Part shown: in pieces, positions 6,648-46,256 of the stretch
Layout: each line of letters opens with the position of its first letter
Numbering within the stretch: the first letter of the stretch is position 1
NCBI GenBank assembly: GCA_965207445.1
Contig: CBDBLX010000002.1
Span: 2,424,124 to 2,488,123 of the forward strand
DNA length: 64,000 nucleotides
Direction: 5' to 3'
Origin: Nitrosopumilus sp.
GTDB lineage: Archaea > Thermoproteota > Nitrososphaeria > Nitrososphaerales > Nitrosopumilaceae
Translations under genes and position numbers: made by a program
Notes under the pieces: model-generated
Databases searched by the model: none
The model's input: the letters and a program-made list of their open reading frames with translations, nothing else
Told to the model about the DNA's origin: nothing

Positions 6648-8804
6648 TCAAGATGTATGTCGCGGAGCATGACATTTTGGACACTTTATGTCAAAATATT
6701 TTTCTTTATATCCACATTCAGGACAGATAAAAATGTCTTTTATGGGCATAAACGATGGTACTAGTATATACATTTTTTCAATTGCATCTTTAATACTAGC
6801 AGAATCATTTTCATCTTCGGGTATATTCAACTCTATTTGTAACCCGGCACTGAGAGCTCGATTAATCTTGTTGCACATTGTGATCTGCGGGTTTTTGGCA
6901 ACATAGTTTGAGATTTCAGATGCATTAAATTTTAAACCTTGTTTGTAAGGCTTTGTATCAACATGACCTGTGCTATGTTTGCCATATCGTTTATTATCTA
7001 AATTGGCAAAGCGCTCTGCACCATCAGAGTCTGCAATACATATTGTAACAGGTTCTGGTCTATCCTTTGAAGTTGAGTTTCCCACAGATACAGCTTGACT
7101 TAGTATATTTTTAATTGACTCGTTACCTTTACGATTATATGTAAATCCTAAAATATCAAATATAGTATCCTGAAATCCCACCAAATTAATAGTCAAAGAA
7201 GCATATGCATGTTGCATGCATTTTGTATGCTTTGCAATCATAGGGTTTAGTCCAGATCTCGTCGCATCAAATATCGCTTTTTTGCGTTGTAAGAGAGCAT
7301 TGATCACATCATTTATCACCAAAATCAAGCGTGCCACAAAGTACTCTGTATCACCTTTATCGACTTGGTAGGCCAAACTTGGTAAATTTATCGACACAGA
7401 TTGCAACGCCATGGACATTATACTATCAGCTTTGTTCAAGCTACCACCAACAACACCACGACTTGACACTTGTGGTTGTTTTGTAAAGAGTACACGACCA
7501 CCAAGTAGTACAATCTCAGCGACACGAGAAGATATTGATGCGATCGCTTCTTTTTCGCAATTTATGACAAGTCCTATACTTGGTTTTGGTGTTTGTTTCA
7601 CGTATCGTGCATATGCATTAATTATACAATTTGTTGTTTTAGGATCGGAACTCAGATTGAGTCGTATTGATGTAAGTTTAGTGTCAAATTCACGAGATAG
7701 TCTTCCAGCAAGTGTGCTAGTGGGGGTATTTGTGACAGATCCAACCACTACAGATGAGGTCATAAATGCAAACAACAAACCCAATTCTATTTCAAGATCA
7801 GATTTATCTCCACATCTTTTAGCAAGTAGTTGTGGCAGGCCAGCCAAGACTAGCTCATTTGATGTCTCTTTTAACAACAATTGAATCATTAGAGAGAGTG
7901 AGGACATTACATCATAGATCTGTGTTGTCTTTGTAACCCTTGATGTGGTAGTGTGTTTGCCACCAATGTCCATACCATTATCAAGAATCTCTTTTATGTT
8001 GACAAAAAGTACATCAGGAAGAAAAGTCCACGTTGCAAGATTAGACAAATGGATAAAACCTTCCATATGTTTGTCTACTAAATCTTTTGGAAGTGTAGAA
8101 AACATCGTGTTTTCGGCAAAGACATTTTTTCCTGCTGCAAGCAAGAGATCGTCCATGCCACCATCCACATTATTCAAATTATCAAACATTTGTTTGATAT
8201 CATGCACAGGCATTCCAAAACGAACATACCTACTTCGATACTCTTCATGATTATTTGCAAGTAAGAAGAAATTTACTACATCTCTGATCAATGAACCTGT
8301 AATGTATGAAAGGTCATACTTGTGAATATTGTTCTCAATCTTCTTTGCCATCTTATCTGCTAGTTCGTATGGCATGTCACTCTCTTTAACAAGTGATTGC
8401 AGTATCCGTTGTTTATTAAACTCATCAATAGAAGAGTTTGACAATCTGACGCGTAACTTGCCACTTTCTACAAATGAGTGGGCCTCTATTCTATCTACAA
8501 GTTCTAAAACTAATTTCCCCTTGTTTGTTATATCATAACGACGCTCAGTTGTGTTTCTTTCAATTAGTCCCAAATCACTCAACCTGTGTAAATGATATGA
8601 AAATTTTCCACCATTTCTTTTAGTTTCAAATCCTGCTTCATCGCGAATACCAGTATATGTGGAAGGACCTTTGGAGTATAAAACTCGGATAATCTGAAGT
8701 CTACTTAGATTAGCCATCGAACTGAATATTGAACGCATGTGTTTTTCAGCAGGTGTTGAGGGTGTTTTTTTTGGAGGCACAAAAACAATTTTTTTAGTAC
8801 TCAT
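6648..8804 (-). CDS. ArsR-like wHTH + ATP-cone + degenerate class III ribonucleotide reductase (NrdD)-like protein
   Basis: N-terminal RLQII..L...FSYHLHRL..LGLI (wHTH); VRLSNSSIDEFNKQRILQSL (ATP cone); H..GFIHL, SINLPSLA, AERFA..D..YG, CPECG...CPKC (NrdD-like); no RxxGY glycyl-radical loop. Confidence 0.8.
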   Translation of the reverse strand: MSTKKIVFVPPKKTPSTPAEKHMRSIFSSMANLSRLQIIRVLYSKGPSTYTGIRDEAGFETKRNGGKFSYHLHRLSDLGLIERNTTERRYDITNKGKLVLELVDRIEAHSFVESGKLRVRLSNSSIDEFNKQRILQSLVKESDMPYELADKMAKKIENNIHKYDLSYITGSLIRDVVNFFLLANNHEEYRSRYVRFGMPVHDIKQMFDNLNNVDGGMDDLLLAAGKNVFAENTMFSTLPKDLVDKHMEGFIHLSNLATWTFLPDVLFVNIKEILDNGMDIGGKHTTTSRVTKTTQIYDVMSSLSLMIQLLLKETSNELVLAGLPQLLAKRCGDKSDLEIELGLLFAFMTSSVVVGSVTNTPTSTLAGRLSREFDTKLTSIRLNLSSDPKTTNCIINAYARYVKQTPKPSIGLVINCEKEAIASISSRVAEIVLLGGRVLFTKQPQVSSRGVVGGSLNKADSIMSMALQSVSINLPSLAYQVDKGDTEYFVARLILVINDVINALLQRKKAIFDATRSGLNPMIAKHTKCMQHAYASLTINLVGFQDTIFDILGFTYNRKGNESIKNILSQAVSVGNSTSKDRPEPVTICIADSDGAERFANLDNKRYGKHSTGHVDTKPYKQGLKFNASEISNYVAKNPQITMCNKINRALSAGLQIELNIPEDENDSASIKDAIEKMYILVPSFMPIKDIFICPECGYKEKYFDIKCPKCHAPRHTS

Positions 8805-8989
8805 CCAAAATTAATTTTAAAATCCACTAAATAAAATTTATGGCATTAAAAATTTGCCAAAATATATACTTACAAACCAATACACATGTCAATATTGATC
8901 ATATAATATTTGCTTTTGATTTACAAAGTATATTTTGAGCAATAAGTTTAGATTTTTAAATTAAAAATGTGAATATAAAAAATATACCA

Positions 8990-9352
8990 CTAGTCAACAT
9001 CTGTATTGACTATCTCCAGTGAATTCAACACAAAACGGTATATTGCCTTCATATCAACATTTTGTTCACTTTGTAGATACTTTACTGTCTTTCTACTCAA
9101 CGGAGCCTTGTGCTGTTCGAAAATAAAATGATAGACGGTTCCCTTTTCCAATGTATTCATCTTGATGTCATCTCCAATGTCAACTGTTACGATATGTCTG
9201 CCATCCTCAACAGGTGCAAACAACTCTATGTCAGCCTTGCTATCTTTCTCATAGATCTCTAGTATGTAACCCGTACCATCTAGCGACGTGGTACTTTTGA
9301 ACTTTGCATTTTGAATATCACCTACTACCCAATCAGGTAAATCATCAGTCAT
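8990..9352 (-). CDS. Hypothetical protein
   Basis: Clean 120-aa ORF starting 4 nt after the stop of the upstream gene. Confidence 0.75.
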   Translation of the reverse strand: MTDDLPDWVVGDIQNAKFKSTTSLDGTGYILEIYEKDSKADIELFAPVEDGRHIVTVDIGDDIKMNTLEKGTVYHFIFEQHKAPLSRKTVKYLQSEQNVDMKAIYRFVLNSLEIVNTDVD

Positions 9353-9356
9353 CTTC

Positions 9357-9665
9357 TTAATCGACCTGTTTCTCTTTTTTGCTCATCTGCCACCACTCAT
9401 GAATCCTGTCCTGTCTATCCTCTCTTGTTTCTGCTTTTTCGTTTAGTTTGCGTCTAATATCTGATATCTGCTCTCGTGTAGCGTACAGACCGCATGTTTT
9501 GCATATAAAGTGCTTTGTAGATGGATCAAGTTTCATAGGCTCACTAATTGCATCAAATAGTTTATAGAGTTCATCTCTACTTCTATCTTCCTCAGGAGTT
9601 TCAAGTTCATACTTTTCCTGTATTCTTTTTTTTTCCTTAAAGACACACTCGGGACAATTAGGCAT
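9357..9665 (-). CDS. Hypothetical Zn-binding protein
   Basis: CPEC and CKTC pairs; TTTAAA TATA-like box about 25 nt upstream. Confidence 0.75.
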   Translation of the reverse strand: MPNCPECVFKEKKRIQEKYELETPEEDRSRDELYKLFDAISEPMKLDPSTKHFICKTCGLYATREQISDIRRKLNEKAETREDRQDRIHEWWQMSKKEKQVD

Positions 9666-9950
9666 GTGATTTTTGCCAAATTTTTTCCTTTAAAAAGCCT
9701 TCTTGATAACATTAAACACGCAAGTAACCCATCAGTGTTAAAAATTATTTTGCATCCATAATATACAGCCACATCATATAGCCATATTATACAGCATAAA
9801 TTGCAAACACTATCAAATATAACAACTAATTAAATAGAATACATAAAAAATTAATCAAATGAAATCTAAATGGTCATACAAGTATGCAACAGACATAATT
9901 TGTAGATATTTTATATTATGATATATGTTTTAAAATAATTCAGATTTAAA

Positions 9951-10058
9951 ATTCGATGAGTGTGTAATTGTCTGGCACACTAGCTCTTATCATCATCCCT
10001 TTTGGTCAGTTCGCCCATCGAATGTACGCTACGTGCCAGACTGTACAGGCGTACAATT
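9951..10058 (-). ncRNA. Putative structured small RNA with a C'/D' kink-turn
   Basis: Minus strand: CTGA-ccaaaaggg-ATGATGA enclosed by a long stem (GTCTGGCAC/GTGCCAGAC plus TAGC/GCTA); GC-richer patch in AT-rich spacer. Confidence 0.5.
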
Positions 10059-10075
10059 CATCTTCTTATTATCTG

Positions 10076-11326
10076 TCAGTGTAACATCTCAGATGCAATC
10101 TTTGCTGCATGTTGCGCACCACACCCATCAAAATTTTTTGCAAATTCGTCTAGTTTATCTACATATTCAGATTTGTTATTCTTGATAGTATGTATAGCTT
10201 TGATTATTTGATCTGTGTTATTTGCTAAAATTCCCAAGCCATGTTCATGAGCCCATCTAATATTATTTGTATGCTCATCATATATTGGAATTCCAATTAT
10301 GGGTTTTTTCTTGATCCCCATTATCTCACCCATGACAGTATGTGAACCATTTAAGACAGCATAGTCACACATCTCAAGTACCACATCCTTTTCATATTCA
10401 GAGAGAAATCCTATGTCTATCTGTACCCAATCTATCTTTTTGTCAATAGCTTCTTTTATCGTGTATCTATTATTATTCACATCCATCACAGAATTTATCT
10501 TTGGATCATCTCTTGCATGGGAGATCAATCTACGTTCACTATTTTTGATTTCGTCTGTGGCAAAAACGTCTTCATATCGTTTGCCTGTTCCATCATTGGT
10601 AGATTTGTTTCCAGTACGCATCCAATAACCAAAATCACCTAATTCTAATAATTCTTTTAGATCAGTAGTTTCACATATCTGACCAGTTTTATTTATATCA
10701 ACATCTGTTGCAAAATGGCCTACATACACTACTTTTTCCTTTAGCGAATTATTTGGAAAATTTAGGTTGTATTCACATATGGTATAAGGTGGAGGCGAGT
10801 CTGCTACTAGTATTTTAGAGGCTTTTGCTATCTGTTTTGATACAAACGAAAGAGCAGGATACAGATACGTTCGTGACTTGTACAATTTAGGTTTGAATTG
10901 ATTTGTGATGAATAGACAAGGTATGCCTCTGTTCTTTGCGAGTATATTTGATCCCATATCACCATCATTTACCACTAGATCAAACTTTTGTGTGTCGTAT
11001 AGTTTACGTTCCTCACGCAGATAATTTGTAATCTGCGTTATGAGTGAAGGGTTTTTCTCTATAGGAAAGAGTATATTTGCAAGTGATTTTGAGACACTAG
11101 GTCCCATCTTACCATCGATTGGAGTTGGCATTAGTATCTCATGTATATTGGCAGTGTTATCTACAAAACGCTCGAGTAATTTTTGATATATTTTTCCCTT
11201 ACTTGAATAATGAACCTCCACGTTGTATGAACTAGTCATATGTTGTGCTAATGCACGATCAAATCGCATCATTCTAGAATAATGCCCACCACCCCATGGA
11301 TAGATAAACTCACCTATCTTGTACAT
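10076..11326 (-). CDS. GT-B fold glycosyltransferase (GT28/MurG-like)
   Basis: GGGHYSR N-terminus, FDLVVND, NGSHTVMGE...PIIGIP..DEH..N. Confidence 0.85.
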   Translation of the reverse strand: MYKIGEFIYPWGGGHYSRMMRFDRALAQHMTSSYNVEVHYSSKGKIYQKLLERFVDNTANIHEILMPTPIDGKMGPSVSKSLANILFPIEKNPSLITQITNYLREERKLYDTQKFDLVVNDGDMGSNILAKNRGIPCLFITNQFKPKLYKSRTYLYPALSFVSKQIAKASKILVADSPPPYTICEYNLNFPNNSLKEKVVYVGHFATDVDINKTGQICETTDLKELLELGDFGYWMRTGNKSTNDGTGKRYEDVFATDEIKNSERRLISHARDDPKINSVMDVNNNRYTIKEAIDKKIDWVQIDIGFLSEYEKDVVLEMCDYAVLNGSHTVMGEIMGIKKKPIIGIPIYDEHTNNIRWAHEHGLGILANNTDQIIKAIHTIKNNKSEYVDKLDEFAKNFDGCGAQHAAKIASEMLH

Positions 11327-11813
11327 GATATGTCAAATAATATCCCGTTTAAATTATGATCTTCGTGTGTGCTCACCCTTTCTCTAACAAAGACATATTA
11401 TATTACAACAGTACGATAATTTTTACAACTAAACCGTACAAACATAAATTGTTACAAAATATAGTAACACTAAATATTATCAATAAGAGTTCATGTATAA
11501 TCAACCCATGCCTAAAATAATTATTTATGTTTTACAATAAATTAGTTTAAATGATACATGTTTTTTAATATAGTATAATATATTAGCTTGATGTAAAATC
11601 TCAATAAAATGGCGGTAGTTTTTGACGAGTGATTACATAATGTGAAAATGACATGATAATATTGATGGCATGCCACCGTACGTCAGCTGCAAAGTAGGAC
11701 TCAAGGGACTGCTGATGATGATGACACTCATTTAGATTACCAACGTTGATGGTACTATATTCTGCTCACAGAATATAGACAGACGGGTGTTGTAATAGTC
11801 TGGCCCACTTTCA

Positions 11814-13016
11814 CTATTGCTTATCGTCTTTCTTCCCGCTTGGCATTTCAGTCCAACCATAACCCGCACTATTAGTTGAATCGGTAGTAGTATGCAGCAT
11901 ATCTAATATTTCATGGACATTGTTTTGTCCTGGCCGAATTGTGATTTTTTGAGTGTTTATGATTTGTGTTTGTGTTGGTTTGATTATAGATTCTGTATTT
12001 TTAACAATGGCAGCAGACATTATTGTCTTTTCGAGACTTTTGATTCCCGCTTGGCCCAGACTCAACTCACGCGCAATCTCATACACACTTACACCGGATC
12101 CTACCAACGGTACGATTGGAATCATACCATACTCAAACACATATCTCAAATATGCATCAGTCACATGTATAGGAAAGATTCCATGTGGGATTGCAAGTGC
12201 AATTCTATGGTGAACACCTTTCTTAGAGTATCGGTCCAATACAATTTGTGTAATTGCATTTACATATTTTATGTAAGATTTGCTTTTATTATCATATTTT
12301 AGATGAATGAACTCTAATCTCACTTCAACGTCCAACATTCTAGGGATCAATCGGTTGAACAATCGTACTAGATTTCGCAACTCGGTCTTTTTTTTATAAA
12401 AGATCATTATTTTAACATCGTATCCTTGACGCATACACTCAAAGCAAGATATAGCAGATAATTCGTCATATATAGCACATATTGTGTAACGCTCCTGTTG
12501 GGTCTTCTCTGTTGGCCTTCCCCACATAGCACCATCAGAAAATATACAGACATATGCGTTTTTTCTAGTAACATACGTATATAGCTCCTTGTCAAATTTT
12601 TCCTCTGTTCCAGGTATGGCTCCATGTTCTTTTCTTTCTATTATCTTTGATGTGGCTGCAATTTCTGCATCTTTTGCAATATATCCCTTTGTGATTCCAT
12701 CCACTCGAACCAAAAAACGCTCACCACGCAACAACATATTACCTCCAATCGATGCAATTTTTGAGATCACTTCATCAAAATTATTGTTGATCTTTCTTGC
12801 AATAGCAACTCTACTAACTCCAAACAACAATCCTATTGCAGATGATGCAAATACAGGATCATTTGTCTGAACCAATATTACATCACAATCGCGTTTTATG
12901 GATTGATATTGCTGTCCCCTAATTTTTAAAATGGTCTTGATATTGATTAAAAGTTGCGGAATTCTTTTTTTTGCAAATATGGCCGGAAAAACAACGACAT
13001 ATGATACAGTCTCCAT
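11814..13016 (-). CDS. THUMP-domain ThiI-like protein with degenerate PP-loop
   Basis: FGVSRVAIA, FLVRV (THUMP region); the expected SGGxDS reads AIYDELS. Confidence 0.7.
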   Translation of the reverse strand: METVSYVVVFPAIFAKKRIPQLLINIKTILKIRGQQYQSIKRDCDVILVQTNDPVFASSAIGLLFGVSRVAIARKINNNFDEVISKIASIGGNMLLRGERFLVRVDGITKGYIAKDAEIAATSKIIERKEHGAIPGTEEKFDKELYTYVTRKNAYVCIFSDGAMWGRPTEKTQQERYTICAIYDELSAISCFECMRQGYDVKIMIFYKKKTELRNLVRLFNRLIPRMLDVEVRLEFIHLKYDNKSKSYIKYVNAITQIVLDRYSKKGVHHRIALAIPHGIFPIHVTDAYLRYVFEYGMIPIVPLVGSGVSVYEIARELSLGQAGIKSLEKTIMSAAIVKNTESIIKPTQTQIINTQKITIRPGQNNVHEILDMLHTTTDSTNSAGYGWTEMPSGKKDDKQ

Positions 13017-13244
13017 TGTCAACTTTAATTGTAATATGGTTTTTAATCTAACGTTACAATACGTATAGCAAGTCATAAAATGATTTTGTGTGCAAGCTTT
13101 GCAACAAATTTAGTTAAAAGAATTTTTTAGGTGTTTTTTATTATTATGTATATATAATGTGCAAGATAATATAACAGATAATTTATACAAAACATTATAT
13201 TATTTTTTGATTTGCTAATAATTTCTAGTAAGCTGTATGATCTT

Positions 13245-13865
13245 TTATATGACTTTTGTAGGTTTTTTAAGATTGTTTACCACCAATCTTATTGCATGGG
13301 GATACGCAATGTGTTCCTTTTGTAAGATACGTTTGGCAAGTGTCTCCTCAGTATCATCTTCCAATACAGGAACTGCATACTGTACTATAATGGGCCCCGT
13401 ATCCACACCTTCATCTGCATAATGAACGGTACAACCAGACCATTTAGCACCATCTTGTATGGCTTGTCTTTGTGCATGCAATCCAGGATACATAGGCAAC
13501 AAAGCAGGATGTATATTCAATACGACATACTTGTTTACCACATCAGACGGAACTATACGCATAAACCCCGCCATGCATATAATATCAGGGTTTAATTCTT
13601 TGAGTTTGATAGACAATTCCTTTTTTACATCACTTATCACACTACATGCTATTCCATGATTTTGTGCTATCACTAAACCATGTGCATCTGCAACATTTGA
13701 TATTACATGTGATACACGTACATTTGGTATATTTTGCATCTCTACAGCATCAATTATTGATTTCATGTTACTGCCTCTGCCAGATATTAAAATGACTATA
13801 TCGAGTATGTTTATTGGTAAATCAGTTATCTCTGATTTTGTACAATTTGTAAATGAAGAATCCAT
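13245..13865 (-). CDS. purN: Phosphoribosylglycinamide formyltransferase
   Basis: LISGRGSNM, LNIHPALLP, GCTVHY..EGVDTGPII. Confidence 0.95.
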   Translation of the reverse strand: MDSSFTNCTKSEITDLPINILDIVILISGRGSNMKSIIDAVEMQNIPNVRVSHVISNVADAHGLVIAQNHGIACSVISDVKKELSIKLKELNPDIICMAGFMRIVPSDVVNKYVVLNIHPALLPMYPGLHAQRQAIQDGAKWSGCTVHYADEGVDTGPIIVQYAVPVLEDDTEETLAKRILQKEHIAYPHAIRLVVNNLKKPTKVI

Positions 13866-13916
13866 GAGACAAAAAAGATCTATTATATTATATTCGTTAA
13901 GCGGCAAACGTCAATT

Positions 13917-14159
13917 ATGACACTACATTGTATTGATACAGATACCATATCTCAAATAGCAGCAGAGATACTTCAAAAGTCCACAGAGTGTAAAAAACCA
14001 ATATATCTACACATTGTACACACACAGGAACAAAATAATGACAAAGTACTGAAAATTTATAACGACAAACCGCCACACAACCACCCATCAATAGTAGCAA
14101 CACCAAACGACACACAAAGTACAGTTGAGAATAGAGTTGCCAGATTATACAAATTATGA
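13917..14159 (+). CDS. Small hypothetical protein
   Basis: 80-aa ORF divergent from purN and upstream of cysH; no recognised motif. Confidence 0.45.
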   Translation: MTLHCIDTDTISQIAAEILQKSTECKKPIYLHIVHTQEQNNDKVLKIYNDKPPHNHPSIVATPNDTQSTVENRVARLYKL

Positions 14160-14206
14160 TTACATAATATATTGTAATTAATATATGGTAAAGATATGAC
14201 AAAAGT

Positions 14207-14923
14207 ATGAGTAAATTTACCCAAAAAGAGGTAGAAGAATTAAACGCCACAATTACTAGTGCACAAGAGGCATTACAATGGGCATCAGATAATCTGCACC
14301 CAAAGGTGGCAAAAGCATCTAGTTTTGGCGCCGAGGATGCAGTTATCATGGACTTGATGTTAAAGATAAATTCCGACTTTCGTTTTTTTACATTAGATAC
14401 AGGACGTCTACCCAAAGAGACATACGAGACGATAGATGCTGTATATAGAAGATATGGCATCAAAGTAGAAGTCTTGTTTCCAGATGCTACTCTAGTACAA
14501 GAGATGGTCAATACAAAAGGTATCAATCTATTTTATGATAGTGTAGAAAATCGCAAGCTCTGCTGCAATATACGCAAGGTTCAGCCAATGAATAAAATGC
14601 TTACAACTCTAGATGGATGGATTACCGGATTGCGCAGCGAGCAGACAAAATTACGTCATGCCGCTACAATGTTCCAGCTAGATGTAGCACACGACAACAT
14701 ACTCAAGATAAATCCTATAATAAATTGGAGTTGGGAAGATGTTCAAAAGTACCTTAAATCACATGATGTGGTGTATAATTCACTGCTTGATAAAGGGTAT
14801 CCAAGTATAGGATGTGATCCATGTACACGACCCATAAAAGAAGGACAATCATTGCGAGATGGTAGGTGGTGGTGGGAAAATACCGGTGAGATTAAAGAAT
14901 GTGGAATTCATATAGAACCATAA
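14207..14923 (+). CDS. cysH: APS/PAPS reductase (CC and CxxC Fe-S motifs of the APS-reducing type)
   Basis: LDTGRLP, LCCNIRKV.P, WITGLR.EQ, GYPSIGCDPCT, RWWWE...ECGIH. Confidence 0.95.
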   Translation: MSKFTQKEVEELNATITSAQEALQWASDNLHPKVAKASSFGAEDAVIMDLMLKINSDFRFFTLDTGRLPKETYETIDAVYRRYGIKVEVLFPDATLVQEMVNTKGINLFYDSVENRKLCCNIRKVQPMNKMLTTLDGWITGLRSEQTKLRHAATMFQLDVAHDNILKINPIINWSWEDVQKYLKSHDVVYNSLLDKGYPSIGCDPCTRPIKEGQSLRDGRWWWENTGEIKECGIHIEP

Positions 14924-14943
14924 TCTAAGTAAATTTGATTACA

Positions 14944-16098
14944 ATGGCGCAAAATGGAATGATCAATGCACACGGTGGCAAGCTGATAGACCGTATGGTC
15001 AAAAATACCAAAGATACAGAAAACATGTATGCAGTGAGTATATCAGATGATTTGGCAAATGATGTCGAGAATATCGCAGACGGTATATTCAGTCCACTTG
15101 AAGGATTCTTGGACCAAGATGATGTAGAATCAGTTGTAAAGCGAGGAAGACTAGCAAATGATGTGGCATGGACTATACCCATTGTGTTGGATGCATCCAA
15201 AGATGATGCAATGGCAATAAAAGATGCAGGAGAGGTGTTGTTGAAAAATTCACAAGGCGTAGGAATTGCAATACTGTCTGTCAATGACATATACAAATCA
15301 GCAAAAGAGGATATAGCACAAGGCGTGTATGGTGTAGTTGATACATCACATCCAGGCGTTGCATATACATTATCACTGCAAGAGTATTTTGTATCAGGTA
15401 AAATTGATTATATACAAAGACCCGATGATAGTAAAATATCTTTGCGCTCTGACAGACAGACACCACAGCAGACACGCAAAGCATTTGAGAATGCAGGGTG
15501 GAAAACAATATGTGCATTTCAAACTAGGAACCCACCACATGTAGCACATGAAATACTGCAAAAGACATCTATTACAACACGTGATGGTGTCTTTGTAAAT
15601 CCGCTTGTAGGCCGCAAAAAAAAGGGCGACTTTGTAGACGAGTTGATAATATCATGTTACAAGGAGGTGATAAAGCTATACTATCCAGAAAAACGATGTC
15701 ATTTTGCAACCGTGCACACAGAGATGAAATATGCAGGTCCAAAAGAAGCCATACATCACGCCATAATGAGGCAGAATTATGGGTGTACGCATATTATAAT
15801 CGGGCGAGATCATGCAGGAGTAGGATCCTTTTACAGTCCATTTGCAGCCCAAGAGATATTCTCAGAGTATCCTGAACTAGAAATACAACCAGTATTCTTT
15901 CCAGCATTCTTTTACTGTAATTTGTGTCTCACGTATACAAACATAAAATGTTGTCCACACGATGACAGCTCAAGAGAACAGATAAGTGGTACGATGCTCA
16001 GAGAGATGATTCAGAACCACAAGACACCCTCAAAATTCATTTTGCGCCCCGAAGTATCAGAGATCATATTAAAGCACCCAAATCCATTTGTAACATAA
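14944..16098 (+). CDS. sat: Sulfate adenylyltransferase
   Basis: [46 protein letters not shown]. Confidence 0.96.
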
Positions 16099-16241
16099 AC
16101 CATATTATAAAAAATACAAAGTATCTACAGGTATAGTATCTAAAATAAATTGTTCAAAATAAGTTATCCAAAATCATACCAGAGTACAATCCAAATATTA
16201 CACGTGACAACTACTTTATTCAGATCATACTATCATATATT

Positions 16242-17036
16242 ATGGATTTTAAAGGAAAGACAGTACTTGTCACAGGGGCATCATCTGGTATAGGTAGAGA
16301 GACTGCCATACAATTTGCACGCAAAGGTGCTAATGTAATTTTGGTTGCAAGAAGAAGCGAATTATTAAAAAAGATTGCAGCAGATATAATCTCCAAGTGT
16401 GATGATCAAAATATCCGTGTCACAGCACACATGTGTGATATATCAAAAAAGGACCAAGTAACAAACATGATAAAAACAGTATTAAATGAATTTGAGAATG
16501 TGGATATTTTAGTGAATAATGCAGGATTTGCAATTAGTGGTGCTGTCTCAAACACCTCAATTGAAGATATCGAGTCACAAATGCGCACCAATTATTTTGG
16601 TATGATATATTGCACAAAAAGTCTACTACAGCACATGACACAACGTGGTTCTGGACATATAATCAATGTAGCATCAGTTGCTGCAAGTTTCGGGTTACCA
16701 GGAATAGCTCCGTACTGTGCATCGAAATTTGCAATGCTAGGTTTCTCAGAGGGACTCAAACATGAGTTAAAGGGGACGGGGGTCGGGGTGACGGTGGTAA
16801 GTCCCATTATGGTCAGAACTGAGTTTTTCAACCATCCATGTTTCAAGAATGTTCCGACTAATCCAGCCATGTCGCTGCACCCAAAAACAGTAGCAAAGGC
16901 GGTTCTAAAAGCAGCAAACTCTCCAAGACTCGAGATCATAGTGCCACCCATAGTCCGAGTAGCGGTATGGTTCAAGAATACATTCCCATTTTTTACAAAC
17001 CCAATACTTGGGAATGTATTCAAACGTTATATGTGA
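16242..17036 (+). CDS. Short-chain dehydrogenase/reductase
   Basis: TGASSGIG, NNAG, YCASK. Confidence 0.93.
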   Translation: MDFKGKTVLVTGASSGIGRETAIQFARKGANVILVARRSELLKKIAADIISKCDDQNIRVTAHMCDISKKDQVTNMIKTVLNEFENVDILVNNAGFAISGAVSNTSIEDIESQMRTNYFGMIYCTKSLLQHMTQRGSGHIINVASVAASFGLPGIAPYCASKFAMLGFSEGLKHELKGTGVGVTVVSPIMVRTEFFNHPCFKNVPTNPAMSLHPKTVAKAVLKAANSPRLEIIVPPIVRVAVWFKNTFPFFTNPILGNVFKRYM

Positions 17037-40747: not shown

Positions 40748-42184
40748 TTGGAATTTAGAGAAGGGTTAACGTTTGATGATGTCTTACTTGTACCCAAATA
40801 TTCCGATATAACAAGTAGATCACAAACTAATTTGTCTACGAGACTCTCACGCAACATAACACTGAACATACCAATTGTCAGTGCCAATATGGATACTGTC
40901 ACAGAATCCGCAATGGCAGTGGCAATGGCACGCGCAGGTGGAATTGGAATAATACATAGATTCCTATCAATAAAAGAACAGTCCGAGGAAGTACTATTGG
41001 CAAAACGCTCAGGGAGTGTCATGATAGAGCACCCATACCTGATATCAGCAGAAAAGACCATACAAGACGCCAAAAACTATTCAGAGGAAAAGAGAGTATC
41101 AGGATTGCTCGTGGTATCTGACACATCTACAAAGATATTGCAGGGTATAATTACAGGGCGCGATATACGGTTTGCTAACCCCGATGATCTTGTATCAAAT
41201 GTTATGACTTCAGATGTAGTGACTGCAAGATTAGGTGTGAGTCTAGATGAAGCAAAAAAGATACTGCATGAGAATCGTATAGAGAAACTACCAATCACAG
41301 ACGAGGATGGTAAAGTCAGAGGACTAGTCACGTCTCGAGATATAATAAATACATTAGATTACCCAAAGATGTCAGTCGATGGTAAGGGTAGACCGCTTGT
41401 GGGAGCAGCAGTAGGTGTAAAGGGCGACTTTATGGAGAGAAGTGAATCATTACTTAATGCAGGGGCAGATGTCTTGGTTGTAGACATTGCACACGGACAC
41501 AGTGATAATGCTATGAATACTGTTCGAAATATCAAAAAAGCGTTTCCAGACTGTGAGTTAATTGCAGGAAATGTAGCTACAGCGCAAGGTGCAAAAGATC
41601 TTATCAGTGTAGGTGTTGATGCAGTAAAAGTGGGTGTAGGGTCTGGCTCCATATGCATTACTAGAGTAATAACCGGATCTGGTGTGCCACAACTAACTGC
41701 AGTAATAGATTGTGCCAAGGTAGGTAAGGACTGCGACATTCCAATAATATCTGATGGTGGAACACGTACATCAGGGGATGCAACAAAGGCATTGGCGGCA
41801 GGTGCCTCGTCTGTCATGGTAGGAAGCATGCTTGGTGGAACTGATGAATCACCAGGTACTGTTTTGACTAAAAATGGCAAGAGATTCAAAGTATACAGAG
41901 GTATGGCGTCACTTGCAGCATCCATTGGTAGAAAGTCCAAAGATACAGGATACGAGTCACTAGATGATGATCTCAACGACTATGTAGCAGAAGGTGTAGA
42001 AGCAATGGTCCCATACAAAGGTGGCGTCACGGATATATTAAAACAACTTACAGGCGGACTACGCTCTGGATTAAGTTATTGTGGAGCGCACACCATATCG
42101 CAGATGCAAAACAATGCAGAATTTATCAAAATGTCAAGAGCAGGATTTGCAGAGAGTAACCCACATGATGTCTCGCTAATGTAG
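40748..42184 (+). CDS. guaB: IMP dehydrogenase (with CBS domains)
   Basis: LTFDDVLLVP, SANMDTV, GVGSGSICITR, YRGMAS, AEGVE. Confidence 0.97.
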   Translation: MEFREGLTFDDVLLVPKYSDITSRSQTNLSTRLSRNITLNIPIVSANMDTVTESAMAVAMARAGGIGIIHRFLSIKEQSEEVLLAKRSGSVMIEHPYLISAEKTIQDAKNYSEEKRVSGLLVVSDTSTKILQGIITGRDIRFANPDDLVSNVMTSDVVTARLGVSLDEAKKILHENRIEKLPITDEDGKVRGLVTSRDIINTLDYPKMSVDGKGRPLVGAAVGVKGDFMERSESLLNAGADVLVVDIAHGHSDNAMNTVRNIKKAFPDCELIAGNVATAQGAKDLISVGVDAVKVGVGSGSICITRVITGSGVPQLTAVIDCAKVGKDCDIPIISDGGTRTSGDATKALAAGASSVMVGSMLGGTDESPGTVLTKNGKRFKVYRGMASLAASIGRKSKDTGYESLDDDLNDYVAEGVEAMVPYKGGVTDILKQLTGGLRSGLSYCGAHTISQMQNNAEFIKMSRAGFAESNPHDVSLM

Positions 42185-42813: not shown

Positions 42814-45765
42814 TCATACAGAGCAAGCGCTAAATCCACAATGATGGCAATAAGCACAACCTTCAGCTAATATTACTTGTTGATCGCATATTGGACATGT
42901 GCGATCTACATTTGAGTCAGGTGTTATAGTAACTGTAGAATGTATTGTCTCAGTAGTTGGTTTAGTGTTATTGTTACTACTACCCATTGCAAAATATTGG
43001 TGATTGGTAGGGTTTTTTGTCTCAACAGTTGGTTTAGTGTTATTACCACTACTAGATGGTTGTTGAGGAGCTGATACATATGGGACCTCCATTGCGTCTA
43101 CGGCAACTTGTTTATTGCTTGTCGGGACAGTAATTTTGTCGATATTTTTCACAATGTTATCAGTTTTGTCATTAGATGCAAATGCATAGGATAGCACATC
43201 ACGCACGTACTCACTACCACGTTGTATCTGCTCTATTATACTACGCGTGATGTCAGATACATCACACATTATAATATTATCAGCAGAAATTGCCTTTTTG
43301 CCACCACCTATTGCAGAATCTACATCTTCCATACCACTAGCTGTTTTCGTAGTAGATGCATCAGACTTGCCATGGTGCAGCACCTGTTTGTCGCGTGAAC
43401 CATCTCGGTATACAGTAATACCCTTTAGTCCAAGCTCGTGTGCCAACGCGTATGCAGCCTTTACATCATTAACATCAGTACCAGAAGGCATGTTAATCGT
43501 CTTGCTAATACCATTTGATATCCATCGTTGCCATACGGCCTGAGCCATCAAGTGATCTGCCCAATGAATGTCAGCAGCAGTCACAAAGACACGACGTAGA
43601 TCCTCTGGCATCTCTTCATCAGCATATATGCTACCACCCATCTCAGTTATACGCTCGGCGACCTCCTCACTGTATAATCCCCGTGCTTCTAATTCTGTAC
43701 GCAGATCGCGATTAGCATAATAAAAACTCCCCACCGTCACATGTTTTTCATATGATAGTGCAAATACAGGCTCCATACCATTACTACAACTTGCAATCAT
43801 GGCAATGGTGCCAGTTGGTGCTACTGTTGTAGTCACTACATTACGTATACCATGCTGTATGATACGCTTGGTAAGTCTGTCCCAGTCACATGTACATCCG
43901 CGCAACGGTGAGTCTTCAGGTCCCATACCATCGTCGCGCGCACCAGCCACAGGAAGCAATCCTTTTACATAATCTGTCTTTTCAAATAGACCAAACGTCC
44001 CACGAGTCTTTGCAAGATTCACAGATTCGTCCATTGAATAATATGTCAGATACTCTGCCAATTTTGATTGTAGTGCAAATCCCTCTTTAGAGTTGTATGG
44101 TATACGCATCTTGTACAACAAGTCAGCAACACCCATAACACCAAGTCCAATACGTCTAGATTCTTTAGCAGCACGTGCAATCTCAGGTATAGGATATTGA
44201 TTCATGTCAACAACAGCATCAAGAAATCGTGTAGTTGTACGTATAGCACGCACATATTGTTCCCAGTCAAACGTACCGTCTGCTGCAATTAATCCTGCTA
44301 CATTGATAGAGCCAAGATTACATGACTCATACGGATACAGACTTTGTTCGCTACAAGGATTCGTAGCTCGTAAGGGCCCACCGCGTGCGCTTGCAAACAC
44401 ATTATGAGTATTGGAATTGTCAAAAAATATCAACCCAGGTTCAGCAGACATATATGCACTTTCTGCTATATCGTTGAACAGTTTTCGTGCGTCTGTCTCA
44501 CCAGTGATCTTGCCATTACGTGGATTGTGCGATGCGTACTTTGTACCTTCCAAGACACACTTCCAAAAATCTTCCCATATACCGACGGATACGTTAAAGT
44601 TTTCTAGAACGCCTGGTTTTTGTTTTGCACGGATAAACTCTCCAATGTCAGGATGCCACACCTCCATTATGCCCATATTTGCGCCACGTCTCTTGCCACC
44701 TTGTTTAACAACATTGGTAATTGAATTTATAATCTCCATAAATGATACCGGTCCTGATGCGACACCCGACGTGCTAGCAACAGTGTCACCAGATGGTCGC
44801 AAGTCCGAATAGTTAATTCCAACACCTCCCCCGGATTGGAATATCATAGTTGCATCAGATGCAGTCTTCATAATACTACCAAGTGAGTCATCCATTCCCA
44901 ACACAAAACATGCAGACAGTTGTCCCAAACGGCCACCAGCGTTCATGAGTGTCGGGGAATTGGGCATAAATTTTTGAGATATCATCAGTCCATAATATTG
45001 ATCTATACTTTCTGACACATGCTCAAAGTCACCGCGCGCCATCATATCAAGTAGATTCTTAAATGACACAGATATGCGCGGTGCTACATCCACGTATGCC
45101 TTTATCAGAGCACGCAAGTGCCATTTGTTGAGTGTGTATCGGCCTATGTTTAATTTGCCATCAAAACTATCCAGTAAGCTAAAGTATGACATTGCATCTT
45201 CTCTGCGTATACGTACATCAGTATCAGTAGCAAAACCTTTTTGGGCAATTGATTCATCATGCACCAAGTCCGCAAGCCCCATCATCAAGGCCACACGCTC
45301 AAACATCTGTTTTGGTGTCTCTACTATATCCCCAGCATCATCTCTGAACAAGTATCTAGAAGCCATTACACGTAGACACGCTATATCAAATTTTTTTGAG
45401 ACATCACACAATCGTACGCGCTTTCCTAATATCTCTTGTTTTTCAGCCCTAGCCTGACGGTGTTCATGCCTATATCTGATATAGTCACGGGCGATCTGCA
45501 CATGACCTTCATCAAGCAATGCAGTCTCTACCATGTCCTGTACATCTTCAACTGTCAATACACGACGTGAATGATCAGTGAGTTCTATACGCTCCATCAC
45601 AGTTCTGCTGACTTTGTCTGCTATACTCTCAGCATCCATACCACTTGATTCAGCAGCGGCCTTGTGAATGGCATTCTTTATGAGACTCTGATCAAAGACA
45701 GCTTCCGTCCCATCCCGTTTTCTGATAGATTGTACTGGGACAGTAGAGGTTGTAGTTGATGACAA
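42814..45765 (-). CDS. nrdJ: Class II (adenosylcobalamin-dependent) ribonucleotide reductase with ATP cone
   Basis: IRKRDG ATP cone, PNSPTLMNAG, LSACFVL, RRGANM, ATNPCSEQ, SCNLGSIN, VAPTGT, C-terminal CxxC..CxxCG..C. Confidence 0.95.
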   Translation of the reverse strand: MSSTTTSTVPVQSIRKRDGTEAVFDQSLIKNAIHKAAAESSGMDAESIADKVSRTVMERIELTDHSRRVLTVEDVQDMVETALLDEGHVQIARDYIRYRHEHRQARAEKQEILGKRVRLCDVSKKFDIACLRVMASRYLFRDDAGDIVETPKQMFERVALMMGLADLVHDESIAQKGFATDTDVRIRREDAMSYFSLLDSFDGKLNIGRYTLNKWHLRALIKAYVDVAPRISVSFKNLLDMMARGDFEHVSESIDQYYGLMISQKFMPNSPTLMNAGGRLGQLSACFVLGMDDSLGSIMKTASDATMIFQSGGGVGINYSDLRPSGDTVASTSGVASGPVSFMEIINSITNVVKQGGKRRGANMGIMEVWHPDIGEFIRAKQKPGVLENFNVSVGIWEDFWKCVLEGTKYASHNPRNGKITGETDARKLFNDIAESAYMSAEPGLIFFDNSNTHNVFASARGGPLRATNPCSEQSLYPYESCNLGSINVAGLIAADGTFDWEQYVRAIRTTTRFLDAVVDMNQYPIPEIARAAKESRRIGLGVMGVADLLYKMRIPYNSKEGFALQSKLAEYLTYYSMDESVNLAKTRGTFGLFEKTDYVKGLLPVAGARDDGMGPEDSPLRGCTCDWDRLTKRIIQHGIRNVVTTTVAPTGTIAMIASCSNGMEPVFALSYEKHVTVGSFYYANRDLRTELEARGLYSEEVAERITEMGGSIYADEEMPEDLRRVFVTAADIHWADHLMAQAVWQRWISNGISKTINMPSGTDVNDVKAAYALAHELGLKGITVYRDGSRDKQVLHHGKSDASTTKTASGMEDVDSAIGGGKKAISADNIIMCDVSDITRSIIEQIQRGSEYVRDVLSYAFASNDKTDNIVKNIDKITVPTSNKQVAVDAMEVPYVSAPQQPSSSGNNTKPTVETKNPTNHQYFAMGSSNNNTKPTTETIHSTVTITPDSNVDRTCPICDQQVILAEGCAYCHHCGFSACSV

Positions 45766-45786
45766 TACAATACGAAATATAATGTC

Positions 45787-45821
45787 TTATATAACACTTT
45801 ATGAATATTTGATCAAATATT
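45787..45821 (-). promoter_or_regulatory. nrdJ TATA box (45787-45794) and perfect 18-bp palindrome AATATTTGATCAAATATT (45804-45821)
   Basis: TTATATAA 22-29 nt upstream of the start; palindrome read directly. Confidence 0.5.
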
Positions 45822-46256
45822 TATGACATCTCAATTTATATCAGTAAATATATATTTAAAAATGATCAATGTCTAATTTTATATTTGTATGTGATTATAA
45901 TAATGAGCTTGTTTTTGCCGCTAACAACCTCAACAAGTAATTACCTTTTATTTGAAATTCTAAAAAATGTAGTAAATATACAATAAATATGTATAGATTA
46001 TTCCATAAATATGAATATAATTAGGCATAATTTCCGGCATAATTTCCGGCATAATCTTCAACACAATTTTATGGTTCACTCGGAACAAAACATATTCATC
46101 TTACAAAACTCAATAATCCAAAATGCAGTTGATTGAATCAAGATTAGATTAGAAACCGACTCAGTTAACATGGCACACCTTAACAATAAAGTGCTTGAGA
46201 TGAATCAGTAATGGCTGACACTTAATCTTTTTATTCAGAGTAAACTATCTTATGTT

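Follow-up and report, generated by a model that had tools for sequence, protein, structure and literature searches.

A winged-helix protein built on a class III ribonucleotide reductase fold, a candidate regulator of ribonucleotide reductase genes in Nitrosopumilus and other archaea

What is the role of a gene resembling an anaerobic ribonucleotide reductase (RNR) in an archaeon whose kin are aerobic ammonia oxidisers? The question is raised by a gene at 6648..8804, on the minus strand of a 64,000-nt stretch of DNA from Nitrosopumilus sp. (the window, hereafter). An earlier reading of the letters alone (the sequence-only reading) had proposed that its product is a catalytically dead class III RNR (NrdD) fused to a winged helix-turn-helix (wHTH) and an ATP-cone, and that it acts as a nucleotide-sensing regulator. 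The present computational analysis supports that interpretation. On balance, the gene product is probably an RNR-derived transcription regulator of RNR genes, NrdR-like in its logic, its DNA binding and its ligand sensing both being predicted. Two lines of evidence beyond the earlier reading point in the same direction, namely the adjacency of the gene family to RNR genes of two classes, and the presence of phased GATC boxes at both promoters.

The gene and its domains are laid out as follows.

6648..8804, minus strand: whole gene, wHTH, ATP-cone-like domain, NrdD-like body and Zn ribbon; 718 aa, single open reading frame (ORF), ATG start (Pfam, and AlphaFold2, Foldseek and VIA-align)
8499..8732, minus strand: winged helix-turn-helix, DUF7347, ArsR-like, residues 25-102; holds the invariant GKF.YHL (Pfam)
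8223..8453, minus strand: divergent ATP-cone, residues 118-194, with VRLS in place of KRDG (Pfam; fold matches to NrdR and RNR cones)
6735..8219, minus strand: class III RNR-like barrel without the catalytic residues, residues 196-690 (Pfam, fold and residue columns)
8040..8051, minus strand: HLSN at the position of HxHD, which holds the substrate triphosphate, residues 252-255 (alignment to NrdD)
7449..7466, minus strand: SSRGVV at the position of the finger-loop thiyl Cys (E. coli PMGCRS), residues 447-452 (alignment)
7371..7394, minus strand: SINLPSLA, a retained NrdD motif, residues 471-478; its Asn is kept in 111 of 115 relatives
6663..6734, minus strand: Zn ribbon CPEC...CPKC, residues 691-714; its four Cys are invariant in a 34-sequence alignment (A1)

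The winged helix scored 35.5 bits with DUF7347 against a Pfam cut-off of 27.6, and 19.6 bits with HTH_20, under the cut-off of 27. The ATP-cone reached 25.4 bits in the protein search, just under the cut-off of 25.8, and 29.4 bits in a six-frame search of the genome; the cones of relatives scored 26.5-36.3 bits. The NRDD match of 62.9 bits (cut-off 26.2) places profile positions 275-529 of 562 at residues 454-713, and the NCBIfam NrdD equivalog TIGR02487 gave 49.5 bits, far below its cut-off of 326.35. Besides the three domains, all the landmark strings named in the sequence-only reading were located: HMEGFIHLSN, SSRGVV, SINLPSLA, AERFA (596-600), CPECG (694-698) and CPKCH (708-712). Its statements that the MGCR position reads SSRGVV and that the protein ends after the Zn site without RxxGY are likewise correct, the stop codon being 4 residues past the Zn-ribbon part and 7 residues past the last Cys (C711), with no glycyl-radical loop.

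The predicted fold agrees with this layout. A full-length AlphaFold2 model (predicted local distance difference test score, pLDDT, 73.8) had class III RNRs as its best matches. Foldseek returned 9dca_A with an E-value of 2e-19, and the model contains the ten-stranded barrel of the NrdD type. On superposition by VIA-align, 443 residues were aligned to T4 NrdD 1h78 (Z 27.0, root-mean-square deviation 3.2 A), upholding the NrdD-like body of the sequence-only reading; the ranking was headed by 21 class III RNR rows (Z 23-27), with class I RNRs next at Z <=20. Residues 21-205 were modelled separately (pLDDT 82.3). Against ArsR/MarR-type regulators this model gave target template-modelling (TM) scores of 0.58-0.81 with weak E-values, a single one being <=0.001; for 3cuo, 3f6o, CzrA, NolR and YodB the target TM was 0.62-0.81 at E-values of only 0.008-0.02. 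Its cone part matched the NrdR structures 9a6n_B (E 1.7e-4), 9fvr and 7p37 as well as RNR cones. A single-protein phmmer search of PDB sequences gave chance matches only, and a family profile was required to reach NrdD chains.

It was pertinent to ascertain whether the loss of catalytic residues is a property of this copy or of the whole family. A word-indexed search found 215 relatives, 120 of which were listed (686-761 aa), and 34 orthologues taken from the listed ones made up A1. When cluster representatives were searched exhaustively, 780 proteins were retrieved at E <= 0.001, and 149 of these (P0121-P0269) were screened for RxxGY. A 115-sequence alignment of proteins of 560-820 aa combined 5 listed relatives, the window's included, with 110 cluster representatives, and took E. 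coli NrdD from the annotated K-12 record as reference. Among the 120 listed relatives, precomputed domain assignments gave DUF7347 in 120/120 and NRDD in 119. All 34 sequences of A1 terminate <=14 residues beyond the Zn ribbon and none has a glycyl-radical loop; since every aligned orthologue ends in the same way, a truncated copy was ruled out. RxxGY stood at the expected place in just three of the 149 representatives (P0180, P0201 and P0269), and one of these, P0269 (1206 aa), resembles a real NrdD. Thus, orthologues do not retain the motif.

In the 115-sequence alignment, no relative has a Cys at the column of E. coli C175, the first active-site Cys, or of C384, the finger-loop thiyl Cys, a Cys being found within three columns of C175 in 5 relatives and of C384 in 12. 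Nor does any of the 115 have a Gly at the G681 column, where 64 rows are gapped; a Gly lies within two columns of it in 28 rows, in a part where the alignment is unsure. The systematic loss of Gly and Cys that was to be expected of such a family was thereby confirmed. HxHD is intact in 2 of the 115. Passages of PMC11226230 describe HxHD and the NxN flap as holding the substrate in P. copri NrdD, and the flap, like HxHD, is degenerate or lost in the family. Each Zn-ribbon Cys is retained in 82-83 of the 115 relatives. Past the ribbon, longer members (about 740-790 aa) carry a C-terminal tail whose glycine loop has sequences such as GRSSAIY and SRSLAKY. We also compared 20 loci from other families of the phylum, outside the ammonia-oxidising archaea, with bona fide NrdDs, four of them from the same loci: all 20 members lack a Cys at the column of the first active-site Cys as well as the QCC and RxTGYY motifs, the near-misses being a finger-loop Cys one residue off in L149 and a Gly one residue off in L150. 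NLPR/NMPR is kept in 20/20 of them and the Zn ribbon in 19/20. Judged by these residue columns, the family as a whole has lost catalysis, with both catalytic Cys, the glycyl-radical loop and HxHD gone.

The host genome (2.61 Mb in 2 contigs, 96.4% complete) was searched for the partners of an active class III enzyme. The studied gene is its single NRDD match, and ATP-cones occur in two genes, the studied one and the 983-aa RNR, which lies within the window.

42814..45765, minus strand: class II RNR nrdJ, 983 aa, ATP-cone and RNR barrel, proposed target (TIGR02504, 704.1 bits against a cut-off of 399.95)

This nrdJ was the sole RNR found in the genome. Profile search of the window and the genome found no NrdG, the top radical S-adenosylmethionine match scoring 34.7 bits against a cut-off of 126.1; that match was ruled out as NrdG, its best families being QueE and its gene adjoining folE. 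The genome gave no match whatever to PF01228 (Gly_radical), PF00268 (NrdB) or TIGR00244 (NrdR), and tblastn of it with NrdD C-terminal glycyl-radical segments gave chance matches only (best E 0.12). A split gene with a downstream glycyl-radical ORF was rejected as well, because the 260 nt from the stop codon to Nep1 carry no such frame and the genome holds no segment like a glycyl-radical domain. The earlier claim of an intact class II nrdJ and no nrdG in the window is therefore correct, neither nrdG nor nrdR was found genome-wide, and neither part of a possible rescue by a separate glycyl-radical peptide plus NrdG was found in the genome. As a side observation, an IMP dehydrogenase gene with a CBS pair (window 40748-42184) is convergent with the relocated nrdJ, so that the new neighbourhood of nrdJ is also one of nucleotide metabolism.

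A scan of species genomes found at least 568 loci of the family. The 80 that were kept belong by title to Nitrosopumilaceae, Nitrosotenuis, Nitrososphaera or 'Thaumarchaeota', the exceptions being one uncultured archaeon and one Lishizhenia-labelled metagenome-assembled genome. By profile, the gene was found in 43/43 sampled genomes of the window's taxonomic family and in 217/301 of its phylum; it is conserved and therefore functional. Strong NRDD matches (>400 bits, true NrdDs) are confined to genomes outside the window's family; within that family, each of the 43 genomes has a weak NRDD match only, namely the studied gene. NrdR exceeded its cut-off in 16/301 genomes of the phylum, all of one family (f12), and in 0/43 of the window's family; passages of PMC9110341 describe NrdR as rare in archaea. 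It was observed in addition that in f12 genomes (e.g. G193:C2:113576-116100) a true NrdR gene stands beside the high-scoring NrdD type in 16/16. For Atlas clusters with the same three domains, Nitrososphaerota, Bathyarchaeota, Thermoproteota and Promethearchaeota are the taxa most often represented, and Nanobdellota has a related HTH and NRDD cluster; both are leads only. The public names of these proteins are automatic and mutually contradictory. The sequence-only reading had expected them to be mislabelled as anaerobic RNRs, and this holds in part: the JGI label is 'ribonucleoside-triphosphate reductase' on 4 of the 120 listed relatives, and Atlas names include both 'anaerobic ribonucleoside-triphosphate reductase family protein' and 'ArsR family transcriptional regulator'. 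In Pfam, the head of the family is still a DUF by name.

Linkage of the family to two classes of RNR gene is tight. Of 110 related loci, 97 have nrdJ as the next gene downstream, on the same strand as the family gene; of the remaining 13, 10 have <1500 nt of contig left, 2 show another arrangement and 1 is without nrdJ within 1507 nt. The usual order is thiolase, the studied gene, nrdJ and then, after a gap, Nep1. The spacer between gene and nrdJ is mostly 200-215 nt long and has its own TATA-like element, which suggests separate transcription units. Among the 20 loci outside the ammonia oxidisers, nrdJ lies directly downstream in 2 (L147 and L150) and a bona fide nrdD in 4 (L149, L155, L160 and L165), with a glutaredoxin gene intervening in two of these four. 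The four neighbouring NrdDs keep QCC and RxTGYY, and the three that were scanned match the full PF13597 profile with 488-523 bits. Further gene-nrdD pairs came from comparing genome tables (G157, G195, G218, G245, G256, G303 and G333).

Some observations on these loci stand by themselves. A pyrB-like aspartate/ornithine carbamoyltransferase gene lies tail-to-tail with the family gene in 7/20 of the loci outside the ammonia oxidisers (L148, L149, L151, L154, L156, L159 and L161), a second tie of the family to nucleotide metabolism. In L047, L052, L073 and L075 the nrdJ match spans ~3.4 kb and not ~2.4 kb, so that nrdJ has something inserted there, possibly an intein. In the window, about 8.5 kb (8990-17036) separate the studied gene from the thiolase/DUF35 pair, and this stretch looks like an inserted block: its ORFs have no tblastn match in any of 80 related loci, and the thiolase/DUF35 pair is matched in 77-78. 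The block holds two small ORFs without family match, the second with two CxxC pairs, a glycosyltransferase-like gene, an unknown 420-aa ORF, and genes for a formyltransferase, a 3'-phosphoadenosine 5'-phosphosulfate reductase, an ATP sulfurylase and a short-chain dehydrogenase. Synteny in the window, with Nep1, Rpr2, S19e and a dsDNA-binding protein downstream and the insert upstream, was tried as a clue to function and was uninformative.

If the protein regulates RNR genes, its binding sites would be expected at their promoters. The following candidate elements were found in the window.

8824..8843, minus strand: promoter-like element CCATAAATTTTATTTAGTGG upstream of the gene; resembles the conserved TCAyAAGTCTTATTTAC of relatives, with a putative promoter role
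8888..8905, no strand: single TGATCA box TATATGATCAATATTGAC upstream of the gene (sequence inspection)
45784-45797: TATA-like GTGTTATATAAGAC in the nrdJ promoter region, with the palindrome AATATTTGATCAAATATT just upstream of it
45804..45821, no strand: perfect 18-nt palindrome AATATTTGATCAAATATT, 39-56 nt upstream of the nrdJ start
45853..45871, no strand: second GATC box CATTGATCATTTTTAAATA upstream of nrdJ, 53 nt from the first GATC

In the relatives, the 150 nt preceding the gene contain 20.9 GATC per kb and the spacer to nrdJ 13.1 per kb. The remaining non-coding DNA of these loci has 4.5 per kb and the overall density is 4.46 per kb, which makes the enrichment upstream of both genes 3- to 4.6-fold. 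The commonest spacing from GATC to GATC is 10, 11 or 20 nt upstream of the gene and 19-21 nt in the spacer. Of 62 loci of 10-14 kb, 31 have their densest 120-nt GATC window within these two regions, which make up ~3% of a locus. Perfect palindromes of >=18 nt number 35 in the 2.6-Mb genome, AATATTTGATCAAATATT being one of them.

A regulon was also sought from the palindrome core, the 12-mer ATTTGATCAAAT, which has 8 copies in the genome, and no pattern emerged; four copies are inside ORFs, and the other intergenic ones adjoin genes for a glycosyltransferase, a coiled-coil protein, a helicase and a rotamase. Separately, at G000:C2:420847-420868, outside the window, a 22-nt perfect palindrome containing the 18-mer AATATTTGATCAAATATT lies inside a HAD-hydrolase-like ORF. 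Many Nitrosopumilus-type loci (L011, L013, L022, L028 and others) have a 13-nt palindrome, TATGAA[C/G]TTCATA, ~95-140 nt upstream of nrdJ; for each of its two 12-mers, 26 of 94 distinct spacers contain a copy. Neither the window nor the region upstream of the regulator gene has this palindrome, which may therefore serve a different factor as a second operator. Upstream of the family gene in L014 (5650-5850) there are three tandem copies of a ~48-nt GATC-rich unit.

Conservation within the family is greatest in the parts that a regulator would use to bind DNA and nucleotides. Within A1, winged helices share a mean pairwise identity of 0.78 and cones one of 0.76, as compared to 0.54-0.56 for the NrdD body, and these two are therefore the best conserved parts, as the sequence-only reading would have it for the head. 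In the broad set, identity of the window's protein to the others is 0.34 for the winged helix, 0.39 for the cone and 0.20-0.23 for the NrdD body. The cone residues Arg120, Tyr189, Arg190 and Arg195 are invariant in the family, the ATP-binding residues of the cone being assigned after passages of PMC11226230. KRDG, with which the nucleotide-binding part of canonical cones starts, is replaced by VRLS or VRTS in the family; VRTS is found in the active sister NrdDs of L155 and L165 too, and the homology of cone and linker to their counterparts in the sister NrdDs, this replacement included, is plain.

A quick maximum-likelihood tree was calculated from 62 rows (LG+G4, E. coli outgroup), with the Shimodaira-Hasegawa-like approximate likelihood ratio test (SH-aLRT) as its only support measure and with the wHTH columns dropped by a 50% fill rule. 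A branch with support 99 sets off all 27 family members, and the family is sister (SH-aLRT 99) to the four NrdDs that adjoin family genes, apart from 30 NrdDs of other type from the phylum. A long branch (1.35) carries the ammonia-oxidiser clade; the internal order of the family is unsure because the program warned of long branches. The tree thus shows a single origin, as reconstructed from these columns, from the neighbouring archaeal NrdD type. The simplest history would be a tandem duplication of nrdD, gain of the winged helix and loss of catalysis, followed by loss of the tail in the ammonia-oxidiser branch. Intermediates can still be seen, in that members beside active NrdDs keep the tail with a dead glycine loop and the ammonia-oxidiser branch has deleted it.

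The mechanism that we propose is as follows. The winged helix would bind operator DNA in the gene's own promoter and in the RNR promoter, candidate operators being the phased GATC-centred boxes in relatives and the 18-nt palindrome before nrdJ in the window's genome. The retained cone, the NrdD allosteric dimer interface (the old specificity site), or both, would bind ATP/dATP or other deoxyribonucleoside triphosphates (dNTPs). Ligand-dependent oligomerisation would alter DNA binding, and RNR expression might thereby be tuned to dNTP supply. More tentatively, and with less confidence than in the regulatory role as such, we propose that the family may constitute an undescribed class of archaeal RNR regulator: an RNR catalytic subunit turned into a sequence-specific transcription factor that is predicted to read dNTPs through its own allosteric apparatus (cone and/or specificity site) and to feed back on whichever RNR class the cell uses, universal in ammonia-oxidising archaea, widespread in other archaea and taking the role of NrdR.

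Several observations weigh against this proposal, and a number of them would suit a DNA-binding regulator whose regulon is centred not on RNR but, for example, on general nucleotide metabolism, replication or the cell cycle, the RNR adjacency being inherited from tandem duplication. In the window's genome the pair is split, with nrdJ about 34 kb away and Nep1 directly after the gene. Outside the ammonia oxidisers, 14 of the 20 loci have no RNR neighbour, and the seven pyrB-like neighbours would fit a wider regulon. With the adjoining NrdDs being the sister clade of the family, its adjacency to nrdD in the anaerobic relatives may have been left over from tandem duplication. The GATC-core motif is found elsewhere too: TTTGATCAAA with <=1 mismatch occurs 17 times in the window as compared to 7.0 expected, so this 10-mer alone is not specific, and the other seven copies of ATTTGATCAAAT show no evident link to nucleotide metabolism among the annotated genes. 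The GATC counts come from kindred genomes and so overstate independence, and a different factor could be the one that binds these boxes. Ligand-binding features are weak, with the cone at or below the Pfam cut-off and VRLS/VRTS in place of KRDG; sensing through the old active site is unlikely, given that HxHD and the NxN flap appear lost. Family f12 carries both NrdR and the winged-helix NrdD-like gene, which means that two regulators can coexist. A regulon of this wider kind nevertheless seems unlikely to us. The RNR adjacency persists despite a change of class downstream, to nrdJ in the ammonia oxidisers, L147 and L150 and to nrdD in L149, L155, L160 and L165; the pair with nrdJ is kept across many genera; and the GATC boxes are enriched upstream of both the gene and nrdJ.

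Rather than a transcription factor, the protein might be a partner of the active RNR, either a subunit that acts allosterically or by sequestration, or one that tethers RNR to DNA or the replisome, its winged helix serving protein contacts or non-specific DNA binding. Proteins of the RNR fold dimerise through conserved interfaces, as is established for NrdD, the gene adjoins RNR genes, and the NrdD body is full-length with a conserved NLPR motif and Zn ribbon. The neighbours, however, belong to two RNR classes with differing surfaces, the spacer with its own TATA-like element separates the two genes, and conservation peaks in the wHTH, a domain of the ArsR type such as sequence-specific regulators typically have; we regard such a partner as quite unlikely. 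It is very improbable that the old barrel keeps an enzymatic or nucleotide-processing activity other than radical reduction, coupled to DNA by the wHTH: the barrel, the NLPR motif and the Zn ribbon are conserved, which speaks for it, but the catalytic Cys, HxHD and NxN flap are all gone, the wHTH and cone evolve more slowly than the body, and a long branch leads to the ammonia-oxidiser clade. As for a working anaerobic RNR fed by a separate glycyl-radical peptide and an unrecognised activase, the fold is all that speaks for it. The missing residues already contradict it, a 96%-complete genome has neither Gly_radical domain, nor a segment resembling one, nor NrdG, and the hosts are aerobic ammonia oxidisers, so that this explanation is hardly credible.

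A regulator of RNR genes derived from RNR is best compared with NrdR, the bacterial repressor of RNR operons, which consists of a Zn ribbon and an ATP-cone. The two are alike in the proposed job, in joining a module of RNR origin, predicted here to bind nucleotides, to one predicted to bind DNA, in gene position beside RNR genes, and in having phased boxes in RNR promoters, the NrdR boxes being a different motif from the GATC boxes. In contrast to NrdR, which has an N-terminal Zn ribbon and cone within about 150 aa, the studied protein has an ArsR-like N-terminal wHTH and carries, in addition, an entire NrdD body, ~500 residues long and catalytically dead. There is no sequence relation beyond the cone, and the protein is NrdR-like by inference only and not a member of that family. 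With class III NrdDs of the SCCR/QCCR finger-loop subclass (T. maritima and the neighbouring archaeal NrdDs) it shares the fold (Z 23-27), the NLPR motif and the order of cone, linker, barrel and Zn ribbon. It differs from them in lacking the glycyl-radical loop, the catalytic Cys, HxHD and the activase and in having an extra wHTH, and is therefore a descendant and not a functional member. Its N-terminal domain resembles ArsR/SmtB-type winged-helix regulators (Pfam DUF7347, HTH_20 and HTH_5) in family match and fold, but is fused here to about 600 residues of RNR origin. In the GntR-aminotransferase fusions of the MocR/GabR type, a helix-turn-helix is joined to an enzyme-derived sensor; the general design of a DNA-binding head on an enzyme fold as ligand sensor would be the same, and the enzyme fold here is an RNR barrel. 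We found no description of the family, or of any regulator based on an RNR barrel, in the full-text literature, supplements and subscription journals being outside the coverage. Thus the design is of a known kind, and an RNR catalytic subunit in that role appears to be undescribed.

Transcriptional control of RNR in archaea is largely unknown, and the family is a concrete, testable candidate for it, with a target promoter next door. It is present in organisms important to the global nitrogen cycle, cultured strains included. The anaerobic-RNR label on these proteins wrongly implies anaerobic capacity in aerobic ammonia oxidisers, and annotation pipelines should drop it. If the proposed function is true, the family would show plainly how an essential radical enzyme can be reused as a sensor domain, with intermediates still living, and would fill in archaea the role that NrdR has in bacteria by means of an unrelated architecture.

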